DNA of 64,000 bases from an uncultured Methanosarcinales archaeon (GTDB lineage Archaea; Nanobdellota; Nanobdellia; Woesearchaeales; GW2011-AR15), in assembly GCA_964537195.1 (NCBI GenBank), contig CAZHYZ010000002.1:296-64295 (forward strand), in the 5' to 3' direction. Within the stretch, counting starts at the first letter, position 1; the number at the start of each line of letters is the position of its first letter. Position numbers and translations under genes: made by a program. The notes beneath the pieces were generated by a model, which saw nothing but the letters and a program-made list of their open reading frames with translations, had not been told where the DNA came from and searched no databases. This document shows positions 60,303-64,000 of the stretch, piece by piece.

Positions 60303-61313
60303 ATGAAAGCATTTAAGGTTGATTTAAAACATGCAGAAAAAGCAAAAAAAGAACTTCTTGAAGAAGGAATTTACCATAAAGAATATTTACCGAAAAAAGA
60401 GAAATCTAAAATTTTTTTCCCAGTAAAAAAAGAGAAAGAAATTAATGTTAAAGGCCAGTTTGTAGAAACAGTTCTTCAAAAAACAGAAAAATTAAACACA
60501 TATAAAGAACTCTTAGAAGACCTTCCAGAAAAAAAACGAGATAAACTTCCTAGTTCTTACGACATAATAGGAAACATAATTATTATTGAAATACCTGATG
60601 AATTAAAAGACACAGAGAAAAGAATAGCTAAAGCAATTCTTGAAACACATTCACAAGTGAAAACCGTACTAAAAAAAGCAAGCACACATTCCGGAGAATT
60701 TAGAACACAAAACACAAAGCATTTGGGTGGCGAAAGGAAGAAAGAGACAACATATAAAGAAAACAACACAACTCTAAAATTAGATGTTGATAAAACTTAT
60801 TTTTCATCGAGACTAAGCACAGAAAGAAAGAGGATATATTCACAAGTAAAAAAAGGAGAATCAATCTTAGTTATGTTTTCAGGTGTAGGTTCATATCCAT
60901 TAACAATAGCTAGAAATTCAAAAGCAAAAAGAATTGTAGGTATAGAAAAAAACCCTGTTGCGCACAAGTATGCAGAAGAGAACAAAAAGTTGAACAAATC
61001 AATAAACGTTGAATTTATAGAAGGAGATGTTAGAAAAGTTGTTCCTACACTAACTAATAATTTTGATAGGATAATAATGCCTTTGCCAAAAGATGCAGAG
61101 AAATTTTTAGATTTGGTTCCGCAAGTTGCAAAAGACCAAACAATAATACACATATATGTTTTCAATGAATCTCTAAAAGATGCAGAGAGGACAATTAAGC
61201 AGGAATGTAAGAAACAGAAAATAAAATGTAATATAATCTCGTCTGTAGTATGTGGCCAGTATTCTCCTTCTACTTATAGAATCTGTGTGGATTTTAAAGT
61301 GCATGCTCATTAG
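60303..61313 (+). CDS. trm5: Trm5/Met-10-family tRNA methyltransferase
   Basis: SYDIIGNI, KTYFSSRLSTER, MFSGVG, DRIIMPLP. Confidence 0.88.
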   Translation: MKAFKVDLKHAEKAKKELLEEGIYHKEYLPKKEKSKIFFPVKKEKEINVKGQFVETVLQKTEKLNTYKELLEDLPEKKRDKLPSSYDIIGNIIIIEIPDELKDTEKRIAKAILETHSQVKTVLKKASTHSGEFRTQNTKHLGGERKKETTYKENNTTLKLDVDKTYFSSRLSTERKRIYSQVKKGESILVMFSGVGSYPLTIARNSKAKRIVGIEKNPVAHKYAEENKKLNKSINVEFIEGDVRKVVPTLTNNFDRIIMPLPKDAEKFLDLVPQVAKDQTIIHIYVFNESLKDAERTIKQECKKQKIKCNIISSVVCGQYSPSTYRICVDFKVHAH

Positions 61314-61372
61314 TTACTACCGACTATCATCTCCTTTCGGATCAATTGGTGTTCACTTAATCATCGCATGCA
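61300..61372 (-). ncRNA. Candidate C/D-box guide sRNA with variant boxes
   Basis: UGCAUGC/GCAUGCA terminal stem, C AUGAUUA, D' UUGA, UCC-GAAA-GGA hairpin, C' AUGAUA, D AUGA, two 12-14 nt guide spacers; TATA-like TTTTTAAA about 20 nt upstream. Confidence 0.68.
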
Positions 61373-61402
61373 AGAAACTATAATTAGAAAGAATTTAAAA
61401 AT

Positions 61403-62545
61403 TTAGCCAAACATGTTCATAAAATCCTGTCCTTCTGAAAGTTCGTCTTCTTTTACTTTTTTTATTGCTTTTTTGAAGTCTTCATTATTTACTATTGTTC
61501 TGTCATCTCTTATAGCAAAATAACCGGCTTCCGTGCACACTGCTTTTATTTCTGCACCTGAAAAATCTTCCATTGAATATAAGAGATTCTCAACTTCAAC
61601 CTCTTTTAATGTCATTCTTTTTGTATGGATCTTGAATATCTCTCTTTTTCCATCTTTATCAGGCAATGGAACATGTATTAATCTATCCAATCTCCCTGGC
61701 CTCAAAATTGCAGGATCAAGGATGTCTCTCCTATTAGTACATCCAATTACTTTAACGTTTCCGAGCGATTCAAAACCATCTATTTCAGCAAGTAATTGCA
61801 TAAATGTTCTTTGAACTTCCCTTTCTCCTGAAGTTCCAATATCGACCCTTTTTGCAGCCAGCGCATCTATTTCATCAATATAGATTATTGAAGGACCCTT
61901 TTCTTTTGCCAACGAAAAAATCTCCTTTACAAGTTTTGCTCCTTCTCCTATAAATTTTTGTACCAGTTCAGAACCTACAACTTCAATAAAAGTACTATCG
62001 GTAGCATTTGCTACTGCTTTAGCAAGCAAAGTTTTTCCTGTCCCTGGCGGACCATATAATAAGATGCCTTTTGGTGGTTGAATACCTATTGTTCTAAACA
62101 AACCAGGTTTTTTTAAAGGAAGCTCAACAACTTCTTTTATTTCTAAAATTTGTTTATGTAATCCACCAATATCTTCAAAAGAAGTATCTGGTTTTTCCAT
62201 TATTATAAATTGTTGAACATTAAATCCTTTTGTTTTTGTAAACTTTCTAATTATATTTAGGTTTTTTTGGTCGACAAGAACAGAATCCCCGGCTTTCAAA
62301 GGATCACATGTTTCAGATATACAGACAAAAAATTGATTTCCGTTTGGAACCTTAATAATAGCATTATTATTTACAACTTCCCTTACTTCACATAACATCA
62401 GAGGAGGAGTTCTTAGCCGATCTATTTCGTTTTTTAAATGGTTAATGGTTTCTTTTAGAATTCTGTTTTCTTCTTCTAATTCACTTATGTTAGATGAATA
62501 AGTAAACATTATGTTTGCAAGTTCTTTACTGCTATTACTGTCCAT
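61403..62545 (-). CDS. pan: Proteasome-activating nucleotidase (start set at 62545)
   Basis: Coiled coil plus OB fold, GILLYGPPGTGKT, IDEID, RPGRLDR, C-terminal HbYX-like MFG. Confidence 0.95.
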   Translation of the reverse strand: MDSNSSKELANIMFTYSSNISELEEENRILKETINHLKNEIDRLRTPPLMLCEVREVVNNNAIIKVPNGNQFFVCISETCDPLKAGDSVLVDQKNLNIIRKFTKTKGFNVQQFIIMEKPDTSFEDIGGLHKQILEIKEVVELPLKKPGLFRTIGIQPPKGILLYGPPGTGKTLLAKAVANATDSTFIEVVGSELVQKFIGEGAKLVKEIFSLAKEKGPSIIYIDEIDALAAKRVDIGTSGEREVQRTFMQLLAEIDGFESLGNVKVIGCTNRRDILDPAILRPGRLDRLIHVPLPDKDGKREIFKIHTKRMTLKEVEVENLLYSMEDFSGAEIKAVCTEAGYFAIRDDRTIVNNEDFKKAIKKVKEDELSEGQDFMNMFG

Positions 62546-62597
62546 CTTTACGCAAAGACAGGTAATGAAATATATTAATAAATCTTGTGGAATAAGC

Positions 62598-64000
62598 TTA
62601 AATAACAAACGATCCGTTTTTGATTATCCATTTCTTTTTATTTTCATTACCTATCCCATAAATATCAAGTTTTTGTCTAGGAGAATCTATAACAACATCC
62701 ATATGATATTCTGTTGCTGTATCTGGTTCAAAACCTGCACCAAATGCTATGTGAATCATGTTGGCAATTTTTTCATTTATTATCAAATAATCACATAATG
62801 AAGCATTCGGGTTGGTGTTTATGGCAAATTCTCCTATCTGGTCGAAATTGTTTTTCTTTAGTTCTATAATTTTTTTTGGTAGACTCTTGTTTTTTTCCTG
62901 CTCTCTTATGTTTTCCCAAGCTTCTTTTTTTCTTTTATTGAAGGCCTCAACAACTTTCTTAGGGCCTGAGAAGAGTTTATAACCTTCTTTATCTACCGTT
63001 GCAATAAATGGATTATTTTCATTTAATCTATAGCTCTTATCTATATTTATTACAACATCCCCAACTATCTTTCCTTTTACATGAGCAGGAGTAGTAAACG
63101 CCTCTCCGCCAGGAATGTTGGCCATCATGCCCATATCTTTTCCAGTTTCCTTTTTTATTCTCGGATTAATTAAGAAACGAGTATCTGAATCACTATATAA
63201 TATAAGTCTCCTTTTTCCATTTTTGATGAGACCAACTTCAAAATCGCAGCCATCTTTTATATTGCTTTTTACAACAACTTTCTCACACCCTTCTAATATA
63301 TCTCCTATCTGTTTGTTTCTTTTTCTCATCTCTTCATAATTTATTAAAGTAGATTCAATTAATTTGTCAATAGGAACAGTGGAAGTGAAACTTACCCTGC
63401 TCTTTGGTGGTCTTTCTTCTTCCCAGGATTGAGGATACCAATGAAACTTATAGATCATTTGTGCCGGAGAATTCCAAGTGCTTTTCATGTTCTTAGTAGG
63501 ATAACCTATCTTTTCACCAAAAAGGTGTTTACCATGATATCCCTTTGAAGATATGAAGAAAGTTGCTTCTGCTAATTTTAGTCTGTTTAGATACAATTCT
63601 TTTGACACCTTTTTGAAATCTATGAAGGGTTGTTTTGAAATTTCTTTCTCAAGTTCTAGACCAAGCAAAGTTGTAATCAACTCAGATATTTTTTCTGGTT
63701 CATCCCGTTGTCCTTCTCTTAATGTACCTGCTTTAATAGTAACTTTCTTGCACTTGTCTTTTGAACTAAAATACATAGAGTCACATATAGCATAAGAATC
63801 TAAATAGTCTTGTAATGGGTCCTGCAGCAATTTTTTATTAGGAATTAAAGCAAAACCAACTGAGAAAAGTTCGTTATTCTTTAATGCAAAAACTTCTTTT
63901 ACAATTCTGTTGGTTGTTTTTCTTAGTTTTTGCTCCATAAACGGAACAAACCAATCCCCCTTATAATCTAAATTTATATTTCCTTCAAATTTAGATTTTT
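62598..64000 (-). CDS. Aminopeptidase, M29/AmpS family (partial; the frame stays open to the window end)
   Basis: NIPGGEAF, GEFAINTN, NEKI...HIAFG, HMDVV; no in-frame stop between 63938 and 64000. Confidence 0.85.
   Translation of the reverse strand, partial: KSKFEGNINLDYKGDWFVPFMEQKLRKTTNRIVKEVFALKNNELFSVGFALIPNKKLLQDPLQDYLDSYAICDSMYFSSKDKCKKVTIKAGTLREGQRDEPEKISELITTLLGLELEKEISKQPFIDFKKVSKELYLNRLKLAEATFFISSKGYHGKHLFGEKIGYPTKNMKSTWNSPAQMIYKFHWYPQSWEEERPPKSRVSFTSTVPIDKLIESTLINYEEMRKRNKQIGDILEGCEKVVVKSNIKDGCDFEVGLIKNGKRRLILYSDSDTRFLINPRIKKETGKDMGMMANIPGGEAFTTPAHVKGKIVGDVVINIDKSYRLNENNPFIATVDKEGYKLFSGPKKVVEAFNKRKKEAWENIREQEKNKSLPKKIIELKKNNFDQIGEFAINTNPNASLCDYLIINEKIANMIHIAFGAGFEPDTATEYHMDVVIDSPRQKLDIYGIGNENKKKWIIKNGSFVI

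Follow-up and report, generated by a model that had tools for sequence, protein, structure and literature searches.

A probable dual-guide box C/D small RNA of the Woesearchaeales with predicted targets in domain V of the 23S rRNA

The DNA analysed here, called the window, is a stretch of 64,000 nucleotides (nt) from an archaeon of the order Woesearchaeales. It covers positions 296–64,295 of contig CAZHYZ010000002.1 (C2:296-64295) in the 1.24-Mb GenBank assembly GCA_964537195.1 (G000), which has a G+C content of 32.5%, 46 contigs and a completeness of 97%. Contigs of this assembly are designated by C numbers, related genomes and loci by G and L numbers. A 73-nt stretch on the minus strand of the window, at 61372..61300, is almost certainly a real box C/D guide RNA, hitherto unannotated, that most Woesearchaeales possess. 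Its architecture is essentially unique in the genome and is conserved, with covariation, in hundreds of genomes, which argues for a gene and not for a chance motif.

We consider it very probable that the stretch is a gene for a dual-guide small RNA (sRNA) of the archaeal box C/D type in this DPANN order, transcribed on its own and working in the following way. The 5′ and 3′ ends of the RNA would pair, boxes C (AUGAUUA) and D (AUGA) forming a kink-turn (K-turn); a second K-turn, capped by a small GAAA hairpin, would arise from boxes D′ (UUGA) and C′ (AUGAUAG). L7Ae would bind both K-turns, and Nop5 and fibrillarin would then assemble. The 12-nt D′ guide would pair with the A-loop (helix 92) of the 23S rRNA, where fibrillarin would 2′-O-methylate the equivalent of Escherichia coli U2552. 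The 13-nt D guide may pair with the 3′ strand of helix 74 (2435–2444), near the central loop of the peptidyl-transferase region, with one guide nucleotide bulged and the U2438 equivalent at position N+5. In this genome, devoid of RrmJ/FtsJ, the sRNA would be the only recognisable route to the universally conserved modification of U2552.

Architecture and conservation of the sRNA

From 5′ to 3′, the RNA reads UGCAUGC-GAU-GAUUA-AGUGAACACCAA-UUGA-UCCGAAAGGA-GAU-GAUAG-UCGGUAGUAACUA-AUGA-GCAUGCA, letter for letter as in a preliminary description made from the sequence alone. That description had assigned the range 61300–61402 to a box C/D guide RNA; the sRNA itself occupies 61300–61372, and the remaining positions, 61373–61402, correspond to the promoter region. 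All of its elements lie on the minus strand. The two strands of the terminal stem, UGCAUGC (61366..61372) and GCAUGCA (61300..61306, antisense to the last codons of trm5), pair perfectly and constitute the C helix of the C/D K-turn, with C:G at -1b:-1n. In the K-turn nomenclature, the bulged strand runs through the C helix, L1–L3, G1b, A2b, 3b and 4b, and the other strand through 4n, 3n, G2n and A1n before entering the C helix. The box C region (61358..61365) comprises the bulge GAU (61365–61363) followed by GAUUA (1b–5b), which gives the variant box C AUGAUUA. Box D, AUGA (61307..61310), carries an A at 4n whose partner is the 4b U of box C.

Box D directly abuts the 7-bp stem, and exactly three unpaired bases (GAU) precede the GA of box C. 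This register yields G.A, A.G, U.U at 3b.3n and U-A at 4b-4n, and is the only one that places a 3-nt GAU bulge between the 7-bp stem and the tandem G.A/A.G. The Rfam sR17 alignment suggested another register, with GCGAUGA as box C, in which the 3-nt bulge next to the 7-bp stem is lost and G faces A at 4b-4n; AUGAUUA was preferred. At the level of sequence and covariation, the C/D motif thus has the K-turn expected of an archaeal box C/D sRNA.

An internal D′/C′ pair is also present. The 12-nt D′ guide AGUGAACACCAA (61346..61357), antisense to the 23S A-loop, is followed by box D′, UUGA (61342..61345), the 4n U of which faces the 4b A of box C′. Next come the internal hairpin UCC-GAAA-GGA (UCCGAAAGGA, 61332..61341), with a 3-bp stem and a GAAA loop, and the box C′ region (61324..61331), made of the bulge GAU (61331–61329) and GAUAG (1b–5b), so that the variant box C′ reads AUGAUAG. 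The 13-nt D guide UCGGUAGUAACUA (61311..61323) leads to box D. The C′/D′ motif is built in the same register as C/D, with a GAU bulge and A-U at 4b-4n, and since the capped UCC/GGA stem closes it, it represents a full K-turn and not a K-loop. The spacers of 12 nt (box C to D′) and 13 nt (box C′ to D) agree with the approximately 12 nt of box C/D RNAs.

The distribution of the sRNA was investigated with a pattern, TGAT-N3-5-GTGAACACC-N2-4-TGA, that describes box C, the core of the D′ guide and box D′ only and leaves the D guide unspecified. It was found in 102 of the 401 genomes of the same GTDB order, nearly always once per genome, against one match in total for the reversed control. A pattern with both guides, run over 185,579 species genomes, returned 95 loci, all of them in Woesearchaeota or Nanoarchaeota assemblies and including the complete genome GW2011_AR15. 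Full-length homologues were fetched and parsed for 92 distinct sequences, and a covariance model (alignment A1, model R1) was built from 60 of them. The model recovers the sRNA of the window with 82 bits (E ~1e-21) and matches 331 of the 401 genomes of the order, mostly in single copy, 239 of the 282 high-quality genomes and 219 of the 257 genera. The D′ guide core GUGAACACC is kept across the order. The D guide, despite its absence from the first pattern, is kept as (C)GG(A/U)AGUAACU in about 93 of 103 pattern matches. The spacers have 12 nt for D′ in 82 and 13 nt for D in 80 of the 92 homologues.

Several observations accompany this distribution. Many of the third-party annotation (TPA) bins carrying the sRNA are titled “uncultured Methanosarcinales archaeon”; GTDB places them in Woesearchaeales, and the titles are apparently mislabelled. 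Four relatives from the family of the window (L223, L224, L221 and L225, in G007, G018, G017 and G006, respectively) keep both guides and the outer C/D boxes and have degenerate internal D′/C′ boxes, such as ...CACCAGAACCAGAAAUGGUUGAAGG..., which suggests an ongoing decay of the internal K-turn in some members of this family. In L075 (G198:C54), an insertion of about 30 nt between boxes D′ and C′ forms a long hairpin.

Covariation was evaluated on a structure of 11 pairs, composed of the terminal stem, the 4b-4n pairs of C/D and C′/D′ and the internal stem. Standard pairs occupy 93.2% of the cells, compared to 60.5% in column shuffles, none of 500 reaching the observed value, and when the partners were slid by 1–3 columns only 21–47% were paired. 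Double-sided changes exist at all 11 pairs, including the six modelled pairs of the terminal stem (60 homologues) and the three pairs of the internal stem. The 100% pairing of the terminal stem (helix 1) is partly built in, because the parser picked the stem ends by maximal pairing. The 4b-4n pairs were not selected for pairing by the parser. At this position in C/D (n = 92), 33 G-C, 30 U-A, 10 C-G, 2 A-U, 10 U.C and 7 other combinations were counted, so that 81.5% are Watson–Crick pairs against 35% after shuffling (0 of 10,000 shuffles). The corresponding figures in C′/D′ (n = 92) were 61 G-C, 16 U-A, 11 A-U, 2 C-G and 2 U.C, or 97.8% Watson–Crick pairs against 50%. The compensatory changes noticed at 4b-4n in both K-turns of the window are therefore a family-wide property, and the class of box C/D guide RNA first proposed is supported by the architecture, the order-wide family and the covariation.

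The 1b.1n pair is G.A and L3 is U in all 92 homologues, 3b.3n is U.U in 76 of them, and in the C/D motifs 2b.2n is A.G in 84 and A-U in the remaining 8. The internal stem of many homologues has 2–5 bp and is capped by GAAA, UUCG or GCAA. In the eight homologues with A-U at 2b.2n in place of the sheared A.G (L035, L038, L084, L085, L087, L101, L117 and L119), box D terminates in UA and not in GA (GGUA, GUUA, GAUA or ACUA), and several of these have Watson–Crick pairs at 3b-3n and 4b-4n. To judge by their sequences, these are non-standard K-turns inside an otherwise conserved guide RNA.

Predicted guide targets and methylation machinery

The targets were sought in the 23S sequences of 12 relatives (L007–L018), of which six belong to the family of the window. 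In this order the A-loop reads GGGGGUGUUCACCC (lineage-specific A-loop GGGUGUUCACC), that is, UGUUCAC rather than UGUUCGC, so that G.A stands where bacteria have the C2551-G2557 closing pair. The stem of the A-loop has the form GGGG-UGUUC-ACCC throughout the order. The complement of the D′ guide, UUGGUGUUCACU, gives nine contiguous Watson–Crick pairs with the A-loop (10 in G025), and the paired guide positions 3–11 match the A-loop segment GGUGUUCAC in all the same-family 23S. Counted from box D′, N+5 is the uridine aligned with E. coli U2552. The numbering was anchored on GGGGAUAAC (2444–2452), and the 114 nt that separate the A-loop from the D-guide site equal 2552 minus 2438. This is the target that the preliminary description had predicted from a UGUUCGC consensus; as the order has UGUUCAC, the match is better than it expected.

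In each of the 12 related 23S, the D′ guide has its top site at the A-loop. In a bulge-tolerant scan of duplex energy over whole rRNAs the A-loop again ranked first with -16.0 kcal/mol, the runners-up lying between -10 and -13, and only one of 40 shuffled guides equalled this energy anywhere. Homologues with a known 23S (G014, G016 and G022) pair over 10–11 bp at the A-loop. G001, of the same family, has a guide identical to that of the window, AGUGAACACCAA, and a 23S reading GGGGGUGUUCACCC, so a 9-bp duplex is normal for the lineage. The D′ guide thus shows, on the 23S of the relatives, the complementarity of about 9 bp or more expected of a guide, with N+5 at a plausible site of 2′-O-methylation. 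The own 16S, the tRNAs and the rest of the genome provided only chance-level matches, with two mismatches, for either guide. Guide-directed methylation of U2552 was predicted in five of the seven archaea studied by Dennis et al. (2015, PMC4644070), whose text describes its predicted Sulfolobus acidocaldarius sites as agreeing with those measured by Hansen et al. (2002). Neither 2438 nor 2552 (E. coli numbering) is listed in the supplements of that paper.

The situation of the D guide is less clear. Unbiased scans with the guide of the window and with the family consensus pointed to the same best 23S site, AAAAGUUACUCCGGGG, located immediately 5′ of GGGGAUAAC. This site, AGUUACU(C)CG, corresponds to E. 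coli 2435–2444, beside the central loop of domain V. Guide positions 2–8 pair with A2435–U2441, which places N+5 on U2438; the nucleotide at position 8/9 (A in most homologues, U here) has no partner, and GG(C) then pairs with C2442–G2444. This extra nucleotide is missing where the spacer has 12 nt; such homologues read GGAGUAACU, which makes nine perfect pairs at the same place. The bulged nucleotide appears to be conserved. The conservation of the D guide, the bulge-free variants and a paralogue in G024 (see below) speak for this site; weighed against a duplex energy that a number of shuffled guides equalled and against an invariant target, the chance that 23S 2435–2444 is the target of the D guide may be put at roughly even or slightly better. 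The fit first suggested for this guide, to UUGCUACC near 2492–2499, has to be abandoned, since no such match exists in any of the 12 related 23S.

Two other candidates were rejected. A match of 11 out of 12 to the 23S segment “TAGTTACTCCCG” was an artefact of minus-strand loci that had not been reoriented, the guide resembling the sense strand near helix 69. The helix-35 site UGGUUCCUACCGA (11 Watson–Crick pairs and one G.U out of 13) has a mismatch beside N+5 and is present only in more distant families. The 23S L015, from G020, is the only related one with an altered D-guide site, AAAGCUAUCCCGGGG instead of AAAGUUACUCCGGGG; no sRNA was detected by the search in G020 (79% complete), which is uninformative for covariation between guide and target. 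A paralogue in G024 (L226, G024:C2:145700-145766, minus strand) bears the same D guide, AAGAGUAACUG, and another D′ guide, UGUUAUUCCCGG, which pairs at 12 of 12 positions, one of them G.U, with the adjacent 23S segment CCGGGGAUAACA, N+5 being the G2446 equivalent. By its sequence, this looks like a diversification of guides by duplication.

The three proteins of the small ribonucleoprotein (sRNP), the presence of which had been recommended as a check, are all encoded in the genome. Nop5 (185.4 bits) and fibrillarin (243.6 bits) are adjacent on C1, and L7Ae (107 bits) is on C13. A search of the genome for FtsJ/RrmJ gave only borderline matches. The best of them, which bears an NPPF motif, is really a methyltransferase of the MTS/PrmC type (81.5 bits to MTS versus 24.6 to FtsJ), and no protein-only enzyme for the 2′-O-methylation of U2552 (Um2552) is consequently recognisable.

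Relaxed patterns and a structure-aware two-K-turn scan of the whole 1.24-Mb genome returned the sRNA, the only strong match, and one weak match in C21. The strict four-box pattern RUGAUGA/CUGA had no match; this and the lack of an Rfam match at gathering score are in line with the early remark that standard box searches could miss this RNA. Target-driven scans for further guides remained at noise level, and a scan for a guide antisense to the P-loop found nothing flanked by boxes. As such scans cannot exclude half-mers or guides borne by introns, a role as sole guide is kept as a hypothesis. A 65-nt element, CCAGGCC-GAUGA...CUGA-GGCCUGG (C1:117559-117623, minus strand, 17 nt upstream of a tRNA gene), was set aside as not being a standard C/D sRNA: its boxes abut a 7-bp GC stem, and it has neither the 3-nt bulge nor the internal C′/D′ pair.

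Several points weigh against a dual-guide sRNA acting as proposed. The assembly contains no 23S gene, its 16S gene ending 595 nt before the end of contig C15, so that the targets were read from the 23S of relatives; we infer that the own 23S should read GGGUGUUCACC in the A-loop and AGUUACUCCG at 2435–2444. The D′ duplex would have only 9 bp in this genome, the two guide nucleotides beside box D′ being unpaired. The D duplex would consist of 7 bp, one bulged guide nucleotide (or a mismatch) and 3–4 bp, with an energy of -13.3 kcal/mol that 8 of 40 shuffled guides equalled. Because both target sites are nearly invariant, covariation between guide and target is not demonstrable for either guide. 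The U.C found at 4b-4n of C/D in 10 of the 92 homologues indicates that pairing there is preferred, not obligatory. Finally, the window and 10 homologous loci match no Rfam family at gathering score, the best sub-threshold match being RF01144 sR17 with 13.6 bits (gathering score 36, E = 1.3).

In an alternative, which we regard as improbable, the sRNA would be a folding chaperone of the rRNA, the box C/D ribonucleoprotein holding helices 74 and 92 of domain V together during assembly; at one of the sites or at both, methylation would then be of minor importance or not occur at all. In favour of this, the two guides are directed at parts of domain V that surround the peptidyl-transferase centre, the G024 paralogue aims at two sites 8 nt apart, and an imperfect D-guide duplex would fit tethering more readily than exact methylation. 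A chaperone-like effect of archaeal sRNAs whose two guides bind rRNA sites close to each other has been discussed before (PMC4644070). The retention of fibrillarin in a reduced genome and the lack of RrmJ for another route to Um2552 speak for the methylation guide instead.

A bolder version of the dual-guide methylation reading can also be formulated, since the sRNA is the only full two-K-turn guide found in this 97%-complete genome. The whole L7Ae–Nop5–fibrillarin apparatus would be kept essentially for this one near-universal RNA, which would have taken over the otherwise protein-made Um2552 after the loss of RrmJ; its K-turns would tolerate any Watson–Crick pair at 4b-4n and even A-U at 2b.2n, and the D guide would work with a conserved bulge. 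We consider this rather doubtful. If true, two textbook rules of box C/D recognition would be relaxed, one by the tolerant K-turns and the other by the bulged guide.

Genomic setting and promoter of the sRNA

The sRNA sits between two convergent genes, PAN on the minus strand and trm5 on the plus strand, with FEN1 further to the left. The upstream same-strand neighbour, at 61403..62608 (minus), encodes the proteasome-activating nucleotidase PAN (Pfam AAA, 144 bits, and a proteasomal ATPase OB domain). The convergent neighbour, at 60303..61313 (plus), encodes the tRNA (m1G37) methyltransferase Trm5 (Pfam TRM5-TYW2, 148 bits). The 5′ end of the sRNA is located 30 nt past the stop codon of PAN, and its 3′ part overlaps the last 14 nt of the trm5 open reading frame (ORF) in antisense. 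A TATA-like box, TTTAAA, is found on the minus strand at 61394..61399, 22–27 nt upstream of the 5′ end of the sRNA. In the 92 homologues a TATA-like hexamer begins at -29 to -26, counted from the base that opens the stem, the A+T content reaching approximately 90% at -29..-22 compared to about 65% on either side, and T-tracts are visible downstream of the 3′ end. Transcription of the sRNA would presumably start from this promoter.

The association with the two neighbours extends beyond the window. Among 100 distinct loci, PAN lies at less than 600 nt from the sRNA in 54, trm5 in 51 and both in 34. At 14–15 loci the orientation is that of the window, PAN preceding the sRNA on its strand and trm5 converging on it; at 32–40 loci it is inverted, trm5 being the gene that precedes the sRNA on its strand and PAN the convergent one. 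Since the sRNA occupies the convergent PAN/trm5 spacer in either orientation, it is likely to have its own promoter and not to depend on read-through from one neighbour. The antisense relation to the last codons of trm5, pointed out at the outset, is real; in most relatives the sRNA shares the strand of trm5, and the overlap is incidental.

This arrangement bears on the possibility, in our opinion a very slight one, that the segment is an L7Ae-binding K-turn regulatory element, either a 3′ untranslated region or terminator of PAN or an antisense regulator of trm5, and no methylation guide at all. Archaeal mRNAs do contain K-turns through which bound L7Ae regulates translation (PMC6298567), the segment starts just past the PAN stop and overlaps the trm5 3′ end in antisense, and the linkage to PAN and trm5 is widespread. 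The orientation nevertheless flips by lineage (PAN on the same strand upstream at 14 loci, on the opposite strand downstream at 40), and the sRNA has its own conserved TATA box. Moreover, both spacers are kept as guide-length segments antisense to rRNA while the stems drift freely, a constraint that a regulatory hairpin does not need. As for a chance arrangement of AT-rich box-like words around the palindrome TGCATGC/GCATGCA in an intergenic spacer, the low G+C content, in which UGA-containing words are common, the 65 matches of loose single-K-turn scans against about 42 in shuffled sequence and an unexceptional minimum-free-energy fold (z = -1.5) would allow it, but it is refuted by the essentially unique full architecture, the homologues in 331 of 401 genomes and the compensatory changes in every helix, and its probability is negligible.

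Two observations concern the surroundings. A 446-aa ORF upstream of PAN (window 62598-63938, minus strand) has no Pfam match at E <= 0.001. ARAGORN, with introns allowed, reported only 17 tRNA genes in the assembly, most of them containing introns, and many tRNAs were probably missed.

Relation to known kink-turns and guide RNAs

In archaeal box C/D K-turns the 4b:4n pair is reported to be “strongly conserved as G:C” (Ashraf, Huang and Lilley 2017, PMC5689011), which makes the present family atypical in sequence, not in geometry. It shares with the canonical K-turn the 3-nt bulge, the tandem G.A/A.G and U.U at 3b.3n. It differs in that G-C accounts for only 36% of the C/D motifs, U-A, C-G and A-U substituting freely, and in that A-U replaces A.G at 2b.2n in 8 of the 92 homologues. 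Nature thereby provides in this family a set of box C/D kink-turn mutants, in which 4b-4n takes all four Watson–Crick forms, 3b.3n is U.U or A-U and 2b.2n is A.G or A-U; this set could serve to test the rules of L7Ae recognition and K-turn folding. The family also indicates that searches based on consensus boxes under-detect guide RNAs in AT-rich reduced genomes. With the sRNA, the archaeal inventory of methylation guides gains an RNA gene that had escaped annotation and that about 85% of the good genomes in this large DPANN order possess. Its proposed target would tie it to the ribosome's most conserved ribose methylation, in organisms without the protein enzyme. The loss of the Um2552 modification impairs growth in E. 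coli, as cited in PMC7994747.

The closest known counterparts are the archaeal dual-guide box C/D sRNAs predicted to direct Um2552 (PMC4644070). They have the same succession of boxes C-D′-C′-D, spacers of about 12 nt, a terminal stem and the L7Ae/Nop5/fibrillarin proteins, and the nucleotide at which their N+5 position is aimed is likewise the opening base of the A-loop. The Woesearchaeales guide differs from them in being tuned to the A-loop variant UGUUCAC and in having a different partner guide. Its boxes C, D, C′ and D′ depart from RUGAUGA/CUGA at 4b-4n, its C′/D′ motif is a true K-turn with a capped stem, and it is covered by no Rfam family. A search of the literature turned up no paper on guide RNAs in Woesearchaeota. 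The box layout of RF01144 sR17, a Pyrococcus C/D sRNA, aligns with it end to end; in view of the unrelated guides and of a score far below the gathering threshold (13.6 versus 36 bits), the sRNA is not a member of that family.

In yeast, snR52 guides Um2921, the equivalent of U2552, alongside Spb1. This RNA belongs to a eukaryotic snoRNP with Nop56/Nop58 and Snu13, and yeast also has a protein-only back-up enzyme. The common element is the RNA-guided ribose methylation of the same A-loop uridine; unlike yeast, the genome studied here has no recognisable enzyme of the FtsJ/Spb1 type. E. coli RrmJ/FtsJ (RlmE) yields the same end product at the same nucleotide as a stand-alone enzyme without guide RNA, and no such enzyme is recognisable here. 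Guide-directed Um2552 has precedents in other archaea as well as in eukaryotes, and the order-wide sRNA of the Woesearchaeales, with its unusually plastic boxes, would join that kind.

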